From a virus, in UHGV virus genome UHGV-0141439: DNA of 64,000 nucleotides, one strand, 5' to 3'. Position numbers and translations under genes: made by a program. Below the pieces are notes generated by a model that worked only from the letters and a program-made list of their open reading frames with translations, did not search any database and had not been told where the DNA came from. Below, piece after piece: positions 4,253 to 48,576 of the stretch (position 1 is the first letter of the stretch; each line of letters starts with the position of its first letter).

Positions 4253-5040
4253 TCGATCACTCCGTTTTGAGTCGTATCAAAATTCCTGGCAGGTATGCAG
4301 TAGTAAAGCGAACCAACATGCTGTGTGCCGTAGCTAAAAATACGGTGCACGTACCACCAGCGGCGGGCTACGCCGTTTACCATCTCTTCATTCCATTCAA
4401 GAATTGATCCGACGGGGACGTTATTTGCTGCAATACGCAGAATCAGAACATCATCGGTTAAGCCATCCTGCTCACCGTCTGCGTCAATCGCATGGAAAGA
4501 GTCACGCCCGTCCGGGTTATCCAGCACATAAACGATTTCAGGTTCCTGGTAAGTCAGTTCGCGCTGGTTGTTATCCAGTTCAGTGAATGACTCTTCTCCT
4601 GTTTCGTCGCTGACTACCCCATATGTGCCAACATCTGGTCGATATAAGAGAGCCTGAAACGCGTCTGGGCTGGATTCAATAATCAGCATCCAGTCTGCGC
4701 GGATTTGGTCGTTAAAGGCTTTATGCCCGTTATAGCGTGCTTTTAGCTGTGGAGTTGGTTCTCTGCCAGCCAGGGAAGGTGGAAGTATGGCTATATCTGA
4801 TTCGGCAGCATCCGGAGTAAGGCCAGCGTTGCTATCAGCAAAATTATCATGGCTATCAGCTTTGGCGGCGGGTTGCTCTTCCAGAATGCTGAATGAATCC
4901 GAACCGGTATTGCCATGTTCCGGCGCACCTCCTGCATTCGCTTCAATCGGCGCTGGCGTTTCTCTCTGCGTGCTGTCATGTTCTGACTCCTTACTTGCCA
5001 GGTTTGCATCGTCAGCAAACCATTCGTCAAAACGGCCCAT
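4249..5040 (-). CDS. Hypothetical acidic protein (operon first gene)
   Basis: Track ORF 4249-5142; likely start is the ATG at 5040 (MGRFDEW...), 6 nt after a GAGG. Confidence 0.4.
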   Translation of the reverse strand: MGRFDEWFADDANLASKESEHDSTQRETPAPIEANAGGAPEHGNTGSDSFSILEEQPAAKADSHDNFADSNAGLTPDAAESDIAILPPSLAGREPTPQLKARYNGHKAFNDQIRADWMLIIESSPDAFQALLYRPDVGTYGVVSDETGEESFTELDNNQRELTYQEPEIVYVLDNPDGRDSFHAIDADGEQDGLTDDVLILRIAANNVPVGSILEWNEEMVNGVARRWWYVHRIFSYGTQHVGSLYYCIPARNFDTTQNGVIE

Positions 5041-5202
5041 AAGCATCCTCAAAGGTCGATCTGTCAGGTATCGAAAGGAAGATTTTCGGGAGATTGTGAT
5101 TTTGGATGAAGGAGGGGGAATCCATAAAATGCACTTGCGCACAGTGCAACAGTGCGCTATAGTTATGGCATTCGGTAATCATCACGGAGGATCAAATGAC
5201 TA

Positions 5203-5505
5203 ATGACCAAAAAAATTAACATAAAGGATTTCAGGGATGCGTGGCTTGATGATTTTTTTGAATTTTCAACACCACATAGAAAGATACCTCCTGATATTCA
5301 TATGACATTGTCACGGAAGTTGGACATTATCAATGCCGCAACTACCTGTAAGGATTTAAGATCACCACCAGGTAATCGGTATGAGGAACTGTCAGGGAAG
5401 CTAAATGGCTATTCATCAGTAAGGGTGAATAAGCAATATAGGTTAATTTTTAAGTGGGTTAACGGAAAGGCCGAGGACTTGTATCTCGACCCTCACAAAT
5501 ACTAA
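5203..5505 (+). CDS. higB: HigB-family toxin (plasmid maintenance system killer, RelE/ParE fold)
   Basis: 100 aa; C-terminal pattern SVRVNKQYRLIFKWVNGKAEDLYLDPHKY is typical of HigB-like toxins; antitoxin follows. Confidence 0.75.
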   Translation: MTKKINIKDFRDAWLDDFFEFSTPHRKIPPDIHMTLSRKLDIINAATTCKDLRSPPGNRYEELSGKLNGYSSVRVNKQYRLIFKWVNGKAEDLYLDPHKY

Positions 5506-21844: not shown

Positions 21845-22117
21845 TTGTATATGTTGCATAGAGTTTTATGGAAAAGCGTTATTGTCGGCGCGATACTGGC
21901 TATATCTGGGTGTGCAATGGTGCAATACAACGACGGTGAAAAGGTAAGCATACAGTCAGATGGTTGGTATGGCCTGGATAGCCTGCAAAAAACCGCAGAT
22001 AAAGCCTGTCAGCAATATGGGAAGTCTAAAGCAGTATATCAGCATAGCGCGAACGCTAACCCTCATCTAGCGCCCGGTTCTGGTGTTCAGAATACCATCT
22101 GGAAATGTGAGCCTTAA
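21845..22117 (+). CDS. Lipoprotein
   Basis: Signal peptide with lipobox ISGC. Confidence 0.45.
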
Positions 22118-22119
22118 AT

Positions 22120-22371
22120 ATGAGCGACTGGAATATTGCAGCTAAAAGTCAGGAAGAACGGGATAAGGTTAACGTTGATCTGGCTGCCAGCGGTGTGGCG
22201 TACAAAGAGCGATTGAACATACCTGTCATAGCTGAACAGGTAGCCCGCGAGCAACCAGAGAATCTGCGCACCTATTTCATGGAACGGCTACGGCACTACC
22301 GGCAGTTAAGCCTCCAGTTGCCAAAAGGGAGCGATCCGGTGTATCAGAACGAGGATGCACCAAAAAAATAG
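22120..22371 (+). CDS. Hypothetical protein
   Basis: 83-aa ORF. Confidence 0.4.
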
Positions 22372-22494
22372 CGGCAAGATGGGGGAGAAATGTGATTAGC
22401 CCCCAGCGTGGCGCGCCTACAAACCCAGCTTTCACAAACTATGCCTTTTCAATGTATACTGTATGAATAAACAGTATCATTAAGGTAAAACGCT

Positions 22495-22884
22495 ATGGGC
22501 TTCCCTTCTCCTGCGGCGGATTATGCAGAGAGCCGCATTTCTCTTGATCAGCAACTAATCAGACATCCTTCCGCGACCTACTTCATGCGGGCGGCAGACA
22601 GCCATCACCGTGAGGGAATATTGCAAGGTGCTTTGCTGGTGGTTGATTCCTCACTTACTCCGGTTGATGGTTCACTGCTTATATGCGCTATGGAGGGTGA
22701 ATATCGCATAAAGAGATACAGGAAGTATCCGCGCCAGCACCTGGAGGATTTAAGCACCGGGAAGAAAGAGGCGTTACCAGTAGATGACGATGGATACACG
22801 GGCAGTAATGCTGTTTTTGGTGTGATCACTCATGTCATCAATGATGCCCGAAGTGGGGAGTTTGATTATAGACCTGTGATTTAA
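22495..22884 (+). CDS. humD: UmuD'-like protein (HumD-type)
   Basis: Begins GFPSPAADY...HPSATYF, i.e. at the processed UmuD' N-terminus; Ser/Lys region retained. Confidence 0.75.
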   Translation: MGFPSPAADYAESRISLDQQLIRHPSATYFMRAADSHHREGILQGALLVVDSSLTPVDGSLLICAMEGEYRIKRYRKYPRQHLEDLSTGKKEALPVDDDGYTGSNAVFGVITHVINDARSGEFDYRPVI

Positions 22885-22897
22885 GGCGCATAAAGAA

Positions 22898-22925
22898 GCC
22901 CGCCAGACCAGGCGGGCTTTTTGTT
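22898..22925. terminator. Rho-independent terminator after humD
   Basis: GCCCGCC-AGACCA-GGCGGGC followed by TTTTTGTT. Confidence 0.65.
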
Positions 22926-22929
22926 GATA

Positions 22930-24024
22930 TCATTCAATGATTTTTTCGGCTGTCAGCCAGCTAATTTCGTGCCTGTCTTTCGGCGGTTTTAGCATGTGAG
23001 CATATTCAGCGACATGCTCCCACGGAATTGTTTTTGCCCACTCAACGATAGCATTGTGATCTGCAGTGAAGAGTGGAATAGTGTGCGATTTCAACCATTC
23101 TAATGTCGTGACGCCATGTTTTTTGGCGTGGTGCTGCGCATGATGCCGGGCTATCACTCGTAATGGCATTGTCCATTCACTACCATCAGGCATCGAAAAG
23201 CGCATTGTCTTCGGCATATCTGATTCAAGAACAGCCTCCCTAATACCAGGGAACTCACCAAGAATCATACGACGATAGTCATCACTATTTCGCCCGCCAT
23301 ACCTTTCGGCAAAATGATCAAGATATTCTTGGGTAATAAATGGTGAATCCTCCGCACTCAGCTTAATGGCTTTATATACACCACTCGGATTATCTTCAGC
23401 TAAAGCACGTCCATGATGTGAATCATAAAAAAAGCCTATTTCCTCTGGTGACGGAATTGAAGTGAGCAATATGCGTGAATCACCACTAGTCATGCTTGCC
23501 CACACAATGCTGTATGCCCGATCGCTGATATGTGCGGAATCCACAATAATGAATAAAAGATGGTCGGCGTAGTGACCTGCAATGCTATCTTCATAGTTAA
23601 GGCGGTAGTTACAAAAGCACATTCCCCAAAATTCATTGAACATCAGACCGCTATCACCGACCTTAAAATACTCAATGATAAAAGGTTGTTTTTTCAGCAA
23701 TGCCTCCCAACATTGCCACACATATGCAACAATTCCTCTTTTGCAAACATTTGATTTTGGATAAACAATTACTGTCCGGGAATCAGGATACATAATCGTA
23801 TAAAGGGTACTAATAACAGCAAGCACTTGCGGTCGTCCGATCCCATACGGAGTGGTGACAGTAGCTTTTGCATTATTGGGCTGTATAGCTTCAACAATTT
23901 GTTGTTGCTGGTGGCTTAAATCAATATCAAACAATTCTTTTGCTGCCAGTACCCAATTGTCTTTATATTTCTCCACCAGCGACAGCCAGCGCGGATCTTT
24001 ATAAATATTGCTCTTAGTCGCCAT
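22930..24024 (-). CDS. PacB paralogue: terminase-large-subunit-like ATPase domain with degenerate Walker motifs and a different His-rich C-terminus
   Basis: Collinear with PacB at 29172-30680 (DPRW, SHQQQ, HLLxI(V/L)D, FYDSHH, YGGR...GxFP); Walker A GHGTGKS is replaced by PYGIGRP and DEAS by DSAH. Start at Met98 of the track ORF. Confidence 0.5.
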   Translation of the reverse strand: MATKSNIYKDPRWLSLVEKYKDNWVLAAKELFDIDLSHQQQQIVEAIQPNNAKATVTTPYGIGRPQVLAVISTLYTIMYPDSRTVIVYPKSNVCKRGIVAYVWQCWEALLKKQPFIIEYFKVGDSGLMFNEFWGMCFCNYRLNYEDSIAGHYADHLLFIIVDSAHISDRAYSIVWASMTSGDSRILLTSIPSPEEIGFFYDSHHGRALAEDNPSGVYKAIKLSAEDSPFITQEYLDHFAERYGGRNSDDYRRMILGEFPGIREAVLESDMPKTMRFSMPDGSEWTMPLRVIARHHAQHHAKKHGVTTLEWLKSHTIPLFTADHNAIVEWAKTIPWEHVAEYAHMLKPPKDRHEISWLTAEKIIE

Positions 24025-24781
24025 CTGCCACTTCCTTAACTTCTTCTTTGGCCTGTTCTGCAATCGCCGCACGGCATTTCGCCCTGGCCGTAGCGATTGC
24101 TTCAGCACGCACATCATCAGGAATCGTTGACGTGATATACATATCCAGTTCTTCGGCGCGGAACACTGTTTGGTCCAGATATTCGCGTAGCATCCAGGTA
24201 AATTCGAAATCACACGCGATAATCTCTGCGCTACCTTCTGCACCATTTGGGAAATGAATAAAAGCCTGTTTAGCCAAACCGATAACACGACATGCGGTTG
24301 CCAAAACAGCGGCAACCAGGTTTACATTTTCACACGCTACGGGCTGATTAACGCCGGAGATTACTCCATTTAACTGTCGGTTATATGGAAGGTAGTTTGA
24401 GATGCGTTCTACGCGCCATGTGCCAGTCAGGCTGCCATTCTTAAAGATAATTGGTGTAACGGATAGCCCAAGCTCGCGTATAAGTCGTTGCGCTATAGCA
24501 GGATCATTAAACATGTCTAATGCTACACATTCGAAAGACTGTGCAAGGGTAAACAGTTCTTCCAGAGAGTAGTCTTTGCCCCTGGCGGTGATGTAACGAT
24601 GAACGCCGCTTTCTGCATCACTCCATATAGCTACGCCATGCTCTTCATTCAGCTCTTCATTAAAGCCGAGATACGTCATGATAGTACGTTCAATCGTGTC
24701 AAACGGCAGTGACATGTCGGCGTTAACAGCCACCAGCAGGCCATTACGCAAGCGGTATTGAATTGCTTTAGTATTTTCCAC
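24014..24781 (-). CDS. Hypothetical protein
   Basis: 255-aa ORF; overlaps the downstream start. Confidence 0.4.
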   Translation of the reverse strand: MENTKAIQYRLRNGLLVAVNADMSLPFDTIERTIMTYLGFNEELNEEHGVAIWSDAESGVHRYITARGKDYSLEELFTLAQSFECVALDMFNDPAIAQRLIRELGLSVTPIIFKNGSLTGTWRVERISNYLPYNRQLNGVISGVNQPVACENVNLVAAVLATACRVIGLAKQAFIHFPNGAEGSAEIIACDFEFTWMLREYLDQTVFRAEELDMYITSTIPDDVRAEAIATARAKCRAAIAEQAKEEVKEVADGD

Positions 24782-24787
24782 GTTAAA

Positions 24788-25252
24788 TCACTCCACTACA
24801 AACCAGTCACATGCCAGTAAGTCGCCTACAGAAGGCGCCCACGGAACAACTACACCTTGTGCATTTTTTAAGGCGAAATAAGCACCATACGGAACGAGAT
24901 CGCCGGGGAAATATCCCTTAATGGCTTCCATTCGTGCCGGGTACTGTCCTTCAGGAACCAGCCAGCAGAATTGGTTTTCGCCGTTCCACCCGCGCCGGGC
25001 AACTTTCTTGCCATCCTTCAGCCACATCAGCGCGTCAGAAAAGTCGGCTGCTTCAAGGTCGATTTCTTCTTGCTGGGTGGTGATGCCACCAGCAGAAATA
25101 GTTACGCTCCCGGTAAGATTAATCATCACGCCGTTGTCATCCGTAATGATGACCGTGGTTCCATTTTTGGAGGCGTCGTTAACCAGGCCATAGCGTTCCT
25201 CAGATGATTTGGGAAGGAACTTAAAAAGCTCTTTCGTTGCCATGTTATTCAT
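24788..25252 (-). CDS. DUF2829-domain protein (Tad2-like fold) with N-terminal extension
   Basis: C-terminal half ALMWLKDGKKVARRGWNG...VPWAPSVGDLLACDWFVVE matches the DUF2829 pattern as I recall it. Confidence 0.5.
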   Translation of the reverse strand: MNNMATKELFKFLPKSSEERYGLVNDASKNGTTVIITDDNGVMINLTGSVTISAGGITTQQEEIDLEAADFSDALMWLKDGKKVARRGWNGENQFCWLVPEGQYPARMEAIKGYFPGDLVPYGAYFALKNAQGVVVPWAPSVGDLLACDWFVVE

Positions 25253-25266
25253 AGTCTTTTCTCTGC

Positions 25267-25761
25267 TTATAACTTTTCGTACTGAAGCGGTGAACGCTTA
25301 ATTTCAAAGTGGCCTTCCGATGTGCTACCAAAGCCACCAGCGCCTCGCTCTGTTTCATCGAGTTCATCAACTTCTACCAGCGATACCGGTTCAACACGCT
25401 CAAAAATGCCTTGCATGACCGCCATTCCTGGCTTGAGGCAAACGCCTTCACCACCGGGATCTGTAATCAGTTTTGCCATGATTTCACCGCGATAATCGGA
25501 GTCGATAATTCCTACGCAGTTAGCCAGGCGAGTATGTTTTTTGCAGCCCAATCCGGAACGCGGATAGAGTTTCAGACACCAGCCGGGCGGGATCTCCATA
25601 GCCAGTCCGGTGTACACCCACCAGCTTGAGGAAATTGCACCATTGCTATCGACACATGGTTTTATTTCAACAGCCTCAAAATCCATCGCCGCCGATCCGG
25701 AGGTGGCATAAGCTGGAAGTTTTGCTGCCGGATGTAGGCGTTTCACTTTTACGTAAATCAT
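25267..25761 (-). CDS. dut: dUTP diphosphatase (dUTPase)
   Basis: Motifs RSGLG, GIIDSDYRGE and GGFGSTS. Confidence 0.7.
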   Translation of the reverse strand: MIYVKVKRLHPAAKLPAYATSGSAAMDFEAVEIKPCVDSNGAISSSWWVYTGLAMEIPPGWCLKLYPRSGLGCKKHTRLANCVGIIDSDYRGEIMAKLITDPGGEGVCLKPGMAVMQGIFERVEPVSLVEVDELDETERGAGGFGSTSEGHFEIKRSPLQYEKL

Positions 25762-26234
25762 TGTTTTTTAGCTCTCTGCGTGAATGTGTAAACCCGACGT
25801 TTGATATGTGGAACGGTAGGAACAGGAAGACAGGAACTTTCAATAACTCCTTGCTCCTCCAGCGATCGCACCGCCCGCAAGAACTGCGACGTGTCGCCGC
25901 CAAACTGGCGGGCATAGGTGCTGCCGTTATGAAGTATTTGAGCTATTACCCGAGCTTTTGTCTGGCTGTCACGATATGCGAATAGCCGCACGGCCTCTTC
26001 TGGCGCAATCGCTAACTGATAGCCTTTCCCGGCACGGTGTCGAATGAATCCATGCGCCAGTAGGTTTTTGAGTTCGTTACGAGTGCGAACAGATCCGTAA
26101 CCCAGGAAGTGTGGATTGATAACGACTGGCTTAAACCATTCCGTAGGTGCTTTAGCTAATAGAGCTAACAGCTTCCCGGATAATTCTGGATAGGAAGACG
26201 GGTAACAATTCAGAGATGGGTAATAAGTTTTCAC
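25758..26234 (-). CDS. Hypothetical protein
   Basis: 158-aa ORF, 4-nt overlap with dut. Confidence 0.4.
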   Translation of the reverse strand: MKTYYPSLNCYPSSYPELSGKLLALLAKAPTEWFKPVVINPHFLGYGSVRTRNELKNLLAHGFIRHRAGKGYQLAIAPEEAVRLFAYRDSQTKARVIAQILHNGSTYARQFGGDTSQFLRAVRSLEEQGVIESSCLPVPTVPHIKRRVYTFTQRAKKQ

Positions 26235-26575
26235 CGACGCCCCCTTGCAGGATATCGACCGGCATTAGTATCCGGTGCAATAAAGCCGGTAGTGGGGCGA
26301 GTGAAAGCGAGATTAATCTTCTCGACCATAGTGCGATAATTTTCCTGATAGTGGGCCAGGAGTTTTTCGGCGGCAATGATGGTTACTTTCCGGACGTAGC
26401 TTTCTGCTTCCTCCAGATTTCGCCAGTTTTTTTCGAGGGTAAACACAGGGACGGCCTCAAGCCCGGTCATGATGCCGAACACAACGACAGCATGACTGTT
26501 CTTAACACCAGCGGCGAAGGTTACGGTGTAACCATCCACCTTGAAGCGTCTTGATTCCGTGATTTGACTCTGCAA
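26231..26575 (-). CDS. Hypothetical protein
   Basis: 114-aa ORF. Confidence 0.4.
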   Translation of the reverse strand: MQSQITESRRFKVDGYTVTFAAGVKNSHAVVVFGIMTGLEAVPVFTLEKNWRNLEEAESYVRKVTIIAAEKLLAHYQENYRTMVEKINLAFTRPTTGFIAPDTNAGRYPARGRR

Positions 26576-26633
26576 AGCACCCTCCTAAATAGGCGAGGGT
26601 ACTTTACAGCAAAGACGTTAATCTAAAAAGATG

Positions 26634-26650
26634 TGTTAGAAATTTAATTT
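26634..26650. promoter_or_regulatory. 17-bp operator-like site TGTTAGAAATTTAATTT
   Basis: Exact consensus; overlaps the cre stop. Confidence 0.5.
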
Positions 26651-27677
26651 ACGAATCCATCAGGCGGCTATTAGCCCCCACAGACACGCCGCCACGGCGA
26701 AGATACCGCATAAGTGTTTCCGGTTTCTTCCAGGTTCCTTCCTGCATGATCTCCACCATAGACACCTGCTTTTCAGCCATATCAATAGCGGCCCCGACGC
26801 GTGCACTATGCCCGGTCCACGTCCGGTATCTTCCTTTGTTTGGCGTAGCATCTCTTTTATTCAGCAACACCCAGGCGTCGCTGAATATTTTCTCCATTGC
26901 AGGTGCAGTAAGGGGCGTTGTCGTGATCCTGGCCTTATTGCTACGGTGTATCGGCGGGAACAGCACTGCGTCAGGATGTTCGCGAAGCCCGGAAACATCC
27001 AGCCAGTCATTCAGCACAGCGGTAGTGCGACGGGAAAGCACCTTATCAAGCCCGGCGGCGGTCGTTATTGTCTTCGTGTGTGAAATATGTAGCGTGACAG
27101 TGTCACCTGTTTGGTCCAGATCTCCTACACGAATACGCGAGATTTCCGACATACGCATCAGCGTATTGTATGCAACAAAGAGAAAAGCCCGGTTGCGCAG
27201 GTCCACCAGCCGTTCTGACCTGGACAACAGGACGTCGAGCAGTTTCAGATCGTCCCACCGCAGCGGTATAGCCTGGCCTGTTCGTTCGCCTTTTTCAGTT
27301 GCCGCTTCGCGCCGGATGCGCCGCATAGCCAGAGAAACACTTTTATCATCCGAAAGTGGCGGAAGGCCACAATGCGAAAGCAGCATGTTCAGCATGGCGT
27401 AGTGCTTATCAATGGTGGTCGAAGCCAGATCGGCATCATGCAGCTGAAGAAAATACTCGCGGGCCATTTCTGGTGAGATCGGAAACCAGGCAAGCTGGCG
27501 AGCGTGACACCAGCGCGCCCAGGAATGAAACACCAAACGGAGGTCGCGCAGAGTATTCGGCGCATAAGCTCCCTGGTCATTCATGAACCGCATAAAGTTT
27601 TCTGCGGCTTCCTGGTACTCTTTGCCAATGTTGCGCAGAAAACCACCGGAACTGCCAGAGATAATTAATTCACTCAT
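26649..27677 (-). CDS. cre: Cre-type tyrosine recombinase
   Basis: 342 aa, collinear with P1 Cre (WFP..PE..R(E/D)YLL, VSL(A/V)MRRIR, AYNTL(M/L)R..EI.RIRV.D, W(T/S)GHSARVGAA.DMA, EIMQ.G.W); lox-like site upstream. Confidence 0.85.
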   Translation of the reverse strand: MSELIISGSSGGFLRNIGKEYQEAAENFMRFMNDQGAYAPNTLRDLRLVFHSWARWCHARQLAWFPISPEMAREYFLQLHDADLASTTIDKHYAMLNMLLSHCGLPPLSDDKSVSLAMRRIRREAATEKGERTGQAIPLRWDDLKLLDVLLSRSERLVDLRNRAFLFVAYNTLMRMSEISRIRVGDLDQTGDTVTLHISHTKTITTAAGLDKVLSRRTTAVLNDWLDVSGLREHPDAVLFPPIHRSNKARITTTPLTAPAMEKIFSDAWVLLNKRDATPNKGRYRTWTGHSARVGAAIDMAEKQVSMVEIMQEGTWKKPETLMRYLRRGGVSVGANSRLMDS

Positions 27678-27828
27678 GAAACTATTTAACCTCTATATAC
27701 AGATGACGCTACGCGAAAAATATAAAAATGACAGGGTAGCTATAAGTTAATTTTCAAGATTCAAGCCTTTGATTCGATGCACGTATTTTCAGTGATGTCA
27801 ATACTGATCATCTACCCATGATTATAGC

Positions 27829-27862
27829 CTAACTTTAAATAATGCCAATTATCTAAAGTTAG
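27829..27862. other. lox-like site: 13-bp inverted repeats around an 8-bp spacer (CTAACTTTAAATA-ATGCCAAT-TATCTAAAGTTAG)
   Basis: Read directly; 12 of 13 arm positions are symmetric; about 150 bp upstream of cre; same 34-bp architecture as loxP but different sequence. Confidence 0.6.
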
Positions 27863-28034
27863 AAATTTAGGAATTTTTTTCCTTTCCGCGCAGATGGGCA
27901 ATGCATTGCTGGTGTGGGCTTTAAGTTATGCCTGGCAGTTTTTAAGCAGAATTTTCTAAATTGGATGATAAAAAAATGCATCTTGATCCTTTACTCACCC
28001 TGTTATTCGGCATAGATTTGTCATAGTAATTTTA

Positions 28035-33962: not shown

Positions 33963-34038
33963 TGGTGGCCCCTACCGGACTTGAACCGGTGACCGTGCGA
34001 TTATGAGTCGCCAGCTCTAACCACTGAGCTAAAGGGCC
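33963..34038 (-). tRNA. tRNA-Ile2/Met type, anticodon CAU
   Basis: Hand-folded 76-nt cloverleaf with encoded CCA; closely resembles E. coli ileX. Confidence 0.8.
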
Positions 34039-34208
34039 AGATTACTGTTAATTCCGCTTACGCTTTTTGCCAGAACCGCGTAAGGCTTTTGCCGCTTGCT
34101 CGATCCCATATGCAACCACCAGCAGAAATAAAAATGTCCAACCAGGGTTCTTATCGGCAAAGGCCCAAAAATCCATCACTTGCAGCTACCTTTTAAGACA
34201 AAACGCCA

Positions 34209-34223
34209 TTGCTGTTAGATTGC
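34209..34223. other. Hairpin CCTGG-TGCCT-CCAGG
   Basis: Second member of the covarying hairpin set. Confidence 0.4.
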
Positions 34224-34450
34224 GGTGCCTGGTGCCTCCAGGTGACGTTAACCAGTTAACAATTAACGCCGGGATGTTTGATTTAACCACTAAGGAGGAT
34301 TGTTTTAACTGTTCCGCGTGCGCTTAGCCGCATTCACCGCAATGGTAAGAGCACTTGGCTGGCTGGGCGGCGATGACGCCTGTACGCATTTGGTGATCCG
34401 GTTCTGCTTCCGGCATTCGCTTAATTAGCCAAATACTCTTAACGTTGCGC

Positions 34451-34537
34451 TGGCGGAGAGTAATGGAATCGAACCATCATCGCTTGCGCAATGGGACGGT
34501 TTTCAAGACCGCTTGAGCACCATGCTCCCTACTCTCC
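34451..34537 (-). tRNA. tRNA-Ser, anticodon UGA (class II, long variable arm), tentative
   Basis: 87 nt; GGAGAGT/ACTCTCC acceptor stem, loop CUUGAAA, GGTTCGATTCC T-arm, encoded CCA; D-arm spacing is atypical. Confidence 0.55.
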
Positions 34538-34682
34538 GGCCGTTGTGGTGGCCGGTACTGAATCTCCGGCATACGGTGCAGCCAATTAGGACTACGGACG
34601 ATCACCGCTCGCGAAAGGGAAGATTTGCGGCCGCATTTCCCTAACATCCAAGAAAGCTATCGCATCAGTCTGCGAATCCACC

Positions 34683-34774
34683 ACAACGTTGAGAACACTG
34701 GTTGTCACGCTGCAACGCAACATTTATTCGTAGATTGGGATATGACCCCGTTACGTCAGTGTTCTCAACGTTGT
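34683..34774. repeat. Perfect 18-bp inverted repeat ACAACGTTGAGAACACTG with 56-bp spacer
   Basis: Arms at 34683-34700 and 34757-34774. Confidence 0.6.
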
Positions 34775-35002
34775 AGTACCGGTTACGGTTCCGGCCAGGC
34801 CTCTTCCTCAACGGGGTATTCTCCATACGGACTACCGTTTATTGGTCGTTCCTGCGGTTTATGTTGTGAAGCCAGATGCTTATCTTCTGGTTGCTTCAAA
34901 GAGCTGCACTTCATCACAACGGTAAGGGTACTTCGTAGGGATTCGAACCCTCTGCCAAGCACGGCGATCTCCGACGTCGCAAAATACCCTTACCTGTTGT
35001 GT

Positions 35003-35078
35003 TGGTGCCGATTAACGGACTCGAACCGCTGACATCCTGCTTACAAGGCAGGCGCTCTACCAACTGAGCTAAACCGGC
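35003..35078 (-). tRNA. tRNA-Thr, anticodon UGU
   Basis: Canonical 76-nt cloverleaf, loop CUUGUAA, encoded CCA. Confidence 0.8.
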
Positions 35079-35080
35079 AT

Positions 35081-35157
35081 TGGCGATGGTGGGTGGATTC
35101 GAACCACCGACCGACAGCTTAGAAGGCTGCTGCTCTATCCTACTGAGCTACACCATC
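35081..35157 (-). tRNA. tRNA-Arg, anticodon UCU
   Basis: Canonical 77-nt cloverleaf, loop CUUCUAA, encoded CCA. Confidence 0.8.
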
Positions 35158-48272: not shown

Positions 48273-48453
48273 GCTGCTAAACGGGTGGCAGGACGTGACG
48301 GGGTTAGCAGACTGGCACGAATGAAACCAGCAGGCCGAAGCCTCCCCATCACGCCCCACCATAATTCGGGCGTAACGTGGTTTTACGGACACAAAAATAC
48401 CGCAATATCGGATATCTGCGGTTGTCCGCATTCGTATTCAGGCTGCTAAACCC
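48273..48453 (-). ncRNA. Candidate C4-like antisense-RNA control region
   Basis: On the minus strand GUUUAGCAGC occurs at 48453-48442 and 48282-48273 and its complement GUCUGCUAACCC at 48312-48301, giving alternative pairings just upstream of the icd RBS. Confidence 0.3.
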
Positions 48454-48576
48454 GGTCGCAGAATTTGCTACGACGACATGAATATAAGCCTGAAAACATG
48501 GAAGATCAACTAAAAATTTCAGCAATGGATGACTTCAGTCGATGATGCAGATCATACATTCCGATTTAGAAACAGC

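Follow-up and report, generated by a model that had tools for sequence, protein, structure and literature searches.

Stand-alone Tad2 proteins of 87–90 amino acids are active as sponges (Hadary et al. 2025), and several relatives provide a frame for comparison. ModTad2 (MoTad2), from a Myroides odoratus prophage, has been solved with histidine-ADP-ribose (His-ADPR; 9EIB) and in the apo form (8V3E); it is a bare 88-residue domain which, by experiment, binds His-ADPR, additionally binds cyclic UMP or CMP (cUMP/cCMP) at a second pocket, and does not block type I Thoeris. SPO1 Tad2 (gp34.65; 8SME, 8SMF and 8SMG) and HgmTad2 (AcrIIA7; 8KBI–8KBM) carry an SQTD motif whose Thr hydrogen-bonds the adenine of glycocyclic ADP-ribose (gcADPR), and HgmTad2 has a 41-residue insertion that binds cGG and cGAMP. 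Multi-domain proteins such as Tad2-Sequestin (with PF21825) and Acb4-Tad2 make the fusion of sponges a described theme. Here we describe a Tad2-like gene at 24788–25252 (minus strand) of the virus genome UHGV-0141439, analysed as one stretch of 64,000 nucleotides (hereafter the window), which is a D6-like E. coli/Salmonella phage-plasmid of the P1 family. The membership of its 154-residue product in the Tad2 family is secure, we judge it likely to act as a sponge, and the dUTPase gene dut beside it is most likely an ordinary neighbour.

The open reading frame (ORF) at 24788–25252 comprises 154 codons and a stop. Its product matched the Pfam family PF11195, “Tad2-like” (formerly DUF2829), with an E value of 2e-22 and 79.9 bits against a gathering cutoff of 25, residues 70–153 covering positions 2–73 of the 73-position profile. 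When the sequence was compared with the PDB, the best match was ModTad2 (9eib/8v3e; E 2.5e-20, 45–47% identity over 88 residues), followed by HgmTad2/AcrIIA7, SPO1 Tad2 and SptTad2; every solved Tad2 was matched. An AlphaFold2 monomer model, built from 42 homologues, was confident for residues 68–154 (24791–25051, minus strand), with a predicted local distance difference test score (pLDDT) of 87–97 and a helix at residues 71–79 followed by strands. In a Foldseek comparison of this model with the PDB, all 24 matches at E ≤ 0.001 were Tad2 chains with a probability of 1.00, the next match having an E value above 1; the top match was ModTad2 bound to His-ADPR, and the target-normalised template modelling score was 0.75–0.87 over the top 24. 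The preliminary description of this DNA had assigned the C-terminal half to the DUF2829/Tad2 pattern, had proposed a structural comparison with Tad2 as the check, and had placed the gene next to a dUTPase, and all of this is borne out: the profile and structure matches are unambiguous, and the two minus-strand ORFs adjoin at 24788–25252 and 25267–25761. An exact-sequence look-up further showed that the same 154-residue protein is already public as a “DUF2829 domain-containing protein” of Salmonella and Enterobacteriaceae, and Tad2 itself is a known family.

The ligand pocket was mapped by alignment using the published contact lists of SPO1 Tad2 and HgmTad2, since the His-ADPR contacts of ModTad2 are given only in figures. 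The gcADPR contacts are W25, N26, W73, S76, T78 and D79 in SPO1 Tad2 and W21, N22, G23, W87, L88, S90, T92 and D93 in HgmTad2; their counterparts in the window protein are W89, N90, G91, W138, A139, S141, G143 and D144. Thus the motif residues GWNG, W, S and D are kept, in common with SPO1 Tad2 and HgmTad2, which share the fold and the W...S..D pattern at 31–39% identity. The exception is the adenine-contacting Thr, replaced by Gly143 in the window protein, by Gly in Tad2_68 (see below) and by Ser in ModTad2, so that the SQTD motif of the binders of 3′-cyclic ADP-ribose (3′cADPR) reads SVGD, SIGD and SVSD, respectively; at this one contact the window protein thus departs from the list as the inhibitors of type II Thoeris do. 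ModTad2, the best match in both sequence and structure, also resembles the window protein in the insertion between β2 and the next core strand, which agrees in length to within one residue, in the PSV-x-D that follows the pocket Trp, and in lacking the Gln-Thr of the 3′cADPR binders. The two differ in the pocket residue (Ser in ModTad2, Gly here) and in the 67-residue N-terminal remnant that the window protein adds to the bare domain.

Given this conservation, we consider it probable that the protein is a homotetrameric sponge of the Tad2 family for the ADP-ribose (ADPR) signals made by domains of the Toll/interleukin-1 receptor (TIR) type, with a shortened N-terminus and dut as an ordinary neighbour. 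The C-terminal 87 residues would fold as in the solved Tad2 structures and, by analogy with SPO1 Tad2 and HgmTad2, assemble into a homotetramer, whose inter-subunit pockets would bind and sequester the small ADPR-derived alarm molecules of TIR-domain (Thoeris) defence. With its signal sequestered, the Thoeris effector would stay off, and the phage-plasmid could establish itself or replicate.

The likeliest ligand would be His-ADPR, the signal of type II Thoeris, perhaps along with an isomer of cyclic ADPR (cADPR), and we place His-ADPR first with moderate confidence. Besides the likeness to ModTad2, this ranking draws on the closest homologue with an experimental phenotype, Tad2_68 (IMGVR_UViG_3300014659_000001, 87 amino acids), which is 68% identical over 82 residues and shares the pattern YPARMEA-KG...VPY-AYFALKNAQG-VVPW-PS-GD, although, as a stand-alone domain, it comes from a metagenomic virus and not from a phage-plasmid. 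In Table S2 of Hadary et al. (2025), Tad2_68 is scored y/y/y (transformed, culture collapse, plaque validation) against type II Thoeris and “n, N/A, y” against type I; it was negative against type IV Thoeris, both CBASS systems and the Bacillus Pycsar system, and not testable against the E. coli Pycsar system. A further hint comes from a sister P1-like plasmid, in which a Tad2 domain 83% identical to that of the window is fused to Sequestin (PF21825). Sequestin is a 3′cADPR sponge, and the known sponge fusions block two different signals; because the fusion partner already covers 3′cADPR, this suggests, by inference only, that the Tad2 core targets some other signal.

Several points weigh against this reading, above all against its choice of ligand. 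The sponge role of the P1/D6-family alleles is a prediction made from sequence and a structural model, and the survey of Hadary et al. left out the Tad2 homologues with a 6E3C (Dec-like) domain, that is, the ancestral lineage of this gene. The argument from Gly versus Thr in the pocket is weak, because Tad2_71, although it carries SQTD, blocks types I, II and IV of Thoeris and because the type I result of Tad2_68 is mixed; specificity in the Tad2 family cannot be read from sequence. The Thoeris types described so far from E. coli and Yersinia (VI and VIII) use 2′cADPR or canonical cADPR, and the natural target in Enterobacteriaceae may therefore be other than His-ADPR. In addition, the promoter and terminator described below are consensus matches.

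Accordingly weighed against His-ADPR is the possibility that the same fold and sponge mechanism serve another ligand, either 2′cADPR or canonical cADPR, or a cyclic mono- or dinucleotide of Pycsar or CBASS held in the pocket at the A–C interface. It would fit the signals of the E. coli type VI system (2′cADPR) and of types VII and VIII, including the Yersinia system (cADPR), the binding of 1″–2′ gcADPR by the SPO1 and Hgm proteins, and the cUMP/cCMP held by ModTad2 at its second pocket; moreover, most of the difference among the P1/D6-family alleles falls in the insertion loop from which HgmTad2 builds its second pocket. The spectrum of Tad2_68, which inhibited neither the Bacillus Pycsar system, nor either CBASS, nor type IV Thoeris, speaks against it, as does the insertion of the window protein, which at about 30 residues has the shorter ModTad2-type length and not the 35–41 residues linked to dinucleotide binding. 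We regard another ligand as possible but tentative.

The N-terminal 67 residues (25052–25252, minus strand) had been described preliminarily as an extra domain, which the model and the alignments do not support. The pLDDT is below 50 for residues 1–30 and 54–58, and residues 33–47 form a weak β-hairpin at about 62. The commonest related alleles encode 216–233 amino acids, and an alignment of the DNA of the window, the RL465-II plasmid and D6 showed that, relative to the 225-residue allele of plasmid RL465-II, an in-frame stretch of 213 bp (71 codons) is missing from the window gene directly after codon 15; the junction, AAA joined to TCATCTGAG, lies at 25199–25210 (minus strand). The removed part corresponds to a Dec-like oligonucleotide/oligosaccharide-binding (OB)-fold module at residues about 16–90 of the 225-residue allele. 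What remains in the window protein is the ancestral first 15 residues, the junction and then a remnant of a β “stalk” or linker, and the 67 residues as a whole are thus best read, from model and alignment, as a low-confidence, predicted disordered deletion remnant and not as an independently folded domain; they would be a functionally dispensable leftover of the OB-fold/stalk module. The D6 allele carries an independent, different and overlapping in-frame loss of 79 codons, and both junctions fall in short A-rich microhomologies. In two Klebsiella P1-like plasmids (L166 versus L167; 4498/4666–5139), calls for this Tad2 gene differ in length, with 213 residues on one and 157 on the other; the shorter call leaves a 165-bp gap after dut and indicates further N-terminal loss at this locus.

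The module that was removed resembles Dec of phage L (PDB 6E3C), with an OB-fold and a following β “stalk” in common between Dec and the N-terminal part of the 225-residue ancestral allele. Dec itself is defined by an OB-fold capsid-binding domain and a trimeric β-helix stalk; in the window protein the OB-fold is absent, having been deleted, and a stalk-like remnant at residues about 21–60 is all that is kept. Tad2 homologues with a 6E3C or PF21825 domain were removed from the survey of Hadary et al., and because of this the Dec-like/Tad2 architecture was evidently known to those authors, though uncharacterised. Such an ancestry raises the question whether the DUF2829 module belongs to a virion-associated or structural protein with no sponge activity, of which the window copy would be a leftover. 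The decoration-protein module of the ancestral allele, and the exclusion of such proteins from the published sponge set, are what this would rest on. Yet the gene lies in a string of recombinase and accessory genes outside the head and tail modules; two independent deletions have taken away the Dec-like part, whereas the Tad2 domain remained under strong purifying selection with its pocket intact; and a sister plasmid has this Tad2 domain joined to Sequestin, itself a sponge. A structural role is, in our view, highly improbable.

A shortened gene could also be a decaying, non-functional allele on its way to loss. There are many deletion variants at this locus, among them a 117-residue form (P0082) that lacks helix α1 of the Tad2 domain; in phage RCS47 the gene is disrupted by an insertion sequence (IS), and fusions to dut occur. 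However, the deletion in the window is in frame and leaves the whole Tad2 domain, and that domain differs from seven other alleles by 4–11 synonymous and 1–3 non-synonymous changes, giving a ratio of non-synonymous to synonymous rates (dN/dS) of 0.02–0.09. The identical 154-residue protein was found on 115 contigs, with NCBI accessions for Salmonella and “Enterobacteriaceae”, and the analogous 146-residue deletion allele of the D6 type on at least 1000 contigs, above any full-length variant listed. Since the deletion is in frame and spares the Tad2 domain, since dN/dS is low and occurrence wide, and since bare Tad2 domains are active, the shortened allele is, on the evidence available, intact and under purifying selection with a predicted function, and we find it extremely unlikely that it is in decay.

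Directly upstream of the Tad2-like gene, dut (25267–25761, minus strand) encodes a trimeric-type dUTPase of 164 amino acids. The product matched PF00692 and 57 dUTPases in the PDB, and it passed the NCBIfam equivalog model NF001862 with 118 bits against a cutoff of 103. When the protein was aligned with E. coli Dut and 16 homologues, motif I was represented by D27, motif II by R68-S69-G70, motif III by G84-x-x-D87-x-D89-Y90, motif IV by Q117 and motif V by R139-G-x-G-G-F144-G-S-T (RGxGGFGST). One position is unusual: the Arg of motif IV, present as (D/E)R(I/V)AQ in all other aligned dUTPases, is Ala in the window protein (MAVMQ, residues 113–117), and this loss is confined to the clade of D6, Klebsiella and Raoultella phage-plasmids. 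An inactive, purely regulatory dUTPase was considered on this account and rejected; in the dUTPase of Mason-Pfizer monkey virus (M-PMV) this Arg makes water-mediated contacts only and may be non-essential (PMC3905902), and the equivalog cutoff is passed. Motifs III and IV are as far apart as in E. coli Dut, with no insertion between them. In the Duts of staphylococcal phages phi11 and 80alpha, which derepress staphylococcal pathogenicity islands (SaPIs), the variable insert that binds the repressor and gives SaPI specificity (motif VI) lies between motifs III and IV; a motif VI-type insert is absent from this position in the window dUTPase, and we know of no Stl-like target in enterobacteria. 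The enzyme is a canonical trimeric dUTPase, which most likely hydrolyses dUTP and keeps uracil out of replicating phage DNA as a lineage-specific neighbour outside the sponge mechanism. Nothing in its sequence points beyond dUTP hydrolysis, the loss of the Arg being an unexplained detail.

The dUTPase had nevertheless been proposed preliminarily as the partner of the Tad2-like protein in an anti-defence pair, and here the comparison of neighbourhoods tells against the proposal. A dUTPase profile was run on six-frame ORFs within 5 kb of Tad2 relatives. Among 80 IMG/VR loci (about 72 of them independent), a dUTPase ORF was present in seven loci of the D6 lineage and on one independent contig, L039, that is, in one of about 72 independent loci. 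Among 80 loci from bacterial genomes (one genome per species) a dUTPase was found once, at L128, 1.45 kb away, so that together a dUTPase lies within 5 kb in two of about 150 independent Tad2 loci. Of 5426 complete E. coli genomes, 216 (about 4%) contain this Tad2 DNA, 98 of them with dut alongside and 118 without it. The P1-like plasmid pMS6198C has ssb, a DUF2829 gene of 225 codons and the isaA-like gene with no dut, and an Enterobacter P1-like plasmid has orf117, orf116 and tad2, again with no dut. The Klebsiella/Raoultella P1-like clade does have dut (about 70% identical at the protein level) with tad2 after it, a synteny that was inherited; the dUTPases that come next in similarity, about 51–53% identical, lie in unrelated phage contexts with no Tad2 neighbour.

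A functional two-gene unit with a moonlighting dUTPase would draw on four lineages (D6, Klebsiella/Raoultella, L039, and the Bacillus phages JL and Shanette) in which dut stands directly upstream of tad2 and on its strand, the last two of these being independent recurrences, and on the loss of the motif IV Arg in the D6/Klebsiella dUTPase clade. The recurring adjacency is a little more than random expectation, and early expression of both as accessory genes would readily account for it. Against such a unit stand the rarity of a dUTPase near Tad2 in both collections, the majority of E. coli carriers that have no dut, the Enterobacter and P1-like plasmids with tad2 and no dut, the nearest outside dUTPases with no Tad2, and a dUTPase whose catalytic motifs are kept. 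We therefore think a functional pair very unlikely. On L039, an unrelated viral contig of 72.8 kb, a plus-strand dUTPase gene is followed by a long Tad2 gene (4480–5381), the two lying between minus-strand portal-like and terminase-like genes; the N-terminal segment of this long Tad2 carries the motif GYLV-x-Y...SWSPKEQF.

Rare fusions of the two genes were examined as possible support for a functional link and set aside. In the fusion protein P0027 (241 amino acids, in a few E. coli plasmids), ...ERGAGG of the dUTPase is joined to ITTQQEE..., with the loss of the Phe and the GST of motif V. A repeat search located the 9-bp direct repeat GCTGGTGGC once inside the motif V region of dut (25333–25341, minus strand) and a second time in the stalk remnant of tad2 (25085–25093, minus strand), and the P0027 junction coincides with this repeat. 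Because a deletion between the two copies reproduces P0027, such fusions are deletion accidents that destroy motif V, a further point against a working pair.

If tad2 has a partner, the isaA-like gene (24014–24781, minus strand; 255 amino acids, phrog_2326) is a better candidate than dut. In almost all of the P1-family loci that were examined it is found downstream of tad2, with proteins down to 48% identical, and its GTG start is 6 bp past the tad2 stop in the window as in other D6-like and in P1-like (pMS6198C) plasmids (for example, L170:3212–3994). An Enterobacter locus departs from this, with another gene between tad2 and the isaA-like gene (L004:6250–6996). A PDB sequence search with the isaA-like protein found nothing.

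The assignment of the window to the D6-like phage-plasmids is based on several observations. Over 71% of its length, the interval 22000–28000 aligned with Escherichia phage D6 at 96.2% identity. From dre through orf117, orf116, dut and the DUF2829 gene to the isaA-like gene, the genes follow one another as they do in D6, and the window Dre is 100% identical to D6 Dre by tblastn. Hallmarks of the P1 family, namely dre/rox, humD and the C4 RNA, are present in the window, and the gene is thus encoded, as expected of a Tad2, by a phage-derived mobile element. In PLSDB, 238 plasmids share the 2.6-kb segment; they are mostly non-mobilisable, 90–100 kb in size, and from E. coli, Salmonella and Shigella. 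Elsewhere in the window are three tRNA genes (33966–35157) and the C4 antisense RNA with its a1/b1 target (48281–48487), as in the P1/P7 immunity region; these three tRNAs and C4/c4-a1b1 are the Rfam matches of the window, and no Rfam family was found in 22–28 kb. The P1 C1-operator consensus had no match at three or fewer mismatches across the window, and the immunity of D6 differs from that of P1.

Both tad2 and dut belong to a tightly packed minus-strand string downstream of dre, in which the seven genes from dre to orfX are joined by 4-bp overlaps or parted by gaps of 6–73 bp, the gaps on either side of tad2 measuring 6 and 14 bp. The first is dre (26649–27677), a Cre-like tyrosine recombinase gene (PF00589; D6 annotation), followed by the orf117-like gene (26231–26575) and the orf116-like gene (25758–26234), which overlap each other by 4 bp, the latter also overlapping dut by 4 bp; orf116 and orf117 are conserved in Enterobacter and Klebsiella P1-like plasmids. 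Beyond dut, tad2 and the isaA-like gene, the string ends with orfX (about 22930–24027; about 365 amino acids, phrog_5902). This last ORF weakly matches the PHROG of terminase large subunits (phrog_2, E 1e-8, residues 240–362 of the long ORF), and its position in phage D6 holds orf109, phd, doc and pdcA instead. The orf116, orf117, isaA-like and orfX products had no match in Pfam or NCBIfam. Six genes were without a match to the PADLOC models, a library without anti-defence proteins and hence uninformative here.

In a simple promoter scan, one strong sigma-70-like site was found upstream of the string, TTGGCA-16-TATAAT (27848 to 27821, minus strand; 11 of 12 consensus positions), and the only other promoter match in the interval was weak (9 of 12; 22956–22929) and lay over the 3′ end of orfX. 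A terminator-like hairpin, again a consensus match, follows just past orfX (22898–22913, minus strand). Given the tight gene spacing, the one strong promoter-like site upstream and the hairpin after the last gene, co-transcription from dre to orfX is plausible, and we infer from its consensus match that the upstream site could serve as the operon promoter; tad2 would then probably be transcribed together with dre, the two ORFs of unknown function, dut, the isaA-like gene and orfX. The rox recombination site (27830–27861), which differs by one mismatch from what we take to be the rox sequence, overlaps the −35 element of this sole strong promoter-like site upstream of dre.

Around the window allele, the Tad2 genes of the P1/D6 family are strongly mosaic. 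The segment EIDLEAADFSDALMWLK (linker and helix) is nearly invariant among the homologues, and its surroundings vary, with two alternative stalk segments and at least three alternative insertion loops in the Tad2 domain. One loop class is paired with the change of RGWNG to REWKG, in which the phosphate-contacting Asn becomes Lys. Proteins P0029, P0036, P0041, P0042, P0067, P0068, P0072 and P0073 have a much shorter insertion loop together with REWKGEK or RGWKGEK in place of RGWNGEN; this class may mark a changed ligand. The partner part varies as well, being either the N-terminal Dec-like module or, instead, a C-terminal Sequestin domain. The Tad2-Sequestin gene of the sister P1-like plasmid (P0037; L003:5001–5576) lies at the equivalent locus, downstream of a cre-like and a Ref-like (RecA_dep_nuc) gene, and is adjoined by a HigB/helix-turn-helix (HTH) toxin-antitoxin pair; the window protein, by comparison, has no second sponge domain.

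As compared sequences, these mosaic alleles look like the outcome of modular shuffling under an arms race, most of it outside the window's own allele. A broader proposal would be that the stretch downstream of cre/dre (or ssb) in P1/D6-type phage-plasmids is a site of recombination-driven sponge diversification, in which the Dec-like module is an undescribed ligand-binding or virion-tethering domain (for example, for a sponge delivered with the particle) that is repeatedly lost as selection favours the bare sponge. In-frame deletion has removed the module from the window and D6 alleles, and truncation has removed it in a Klebsiella plasmid. We consider this proposal speculative and, as a whole, unlikely.

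Taken together, by sequence and model the window gene is a genuine member of the Tad2 sponge family, intact, widespread and annotated before now, with a dUTPase as its ordinary neighbour, and the message for annotation is that this neighbouring dUTPase should not be counted as a component of an anti-defence system. The series of alleles found here, comprising the full-length form, two deletion forms, three loop variants and the Sequestin fusion, is a natural experiment on the evolution of sponge specificity and architecture. If the predicted function is true, common phage-plasmids of 90–100 kb would carry a sponge for Thoeris signals, in about one in twenty-five of the complete E. coli genomes and also in Salmonella. 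If the dre-to-orfX genes are indeed co-transcribed, the sponge might be produced both on entry and in the lysogen; and, expressed from a resident plasmid, it could protect the element on entry and could also lower the TIR-based immunity of the host to other phages.

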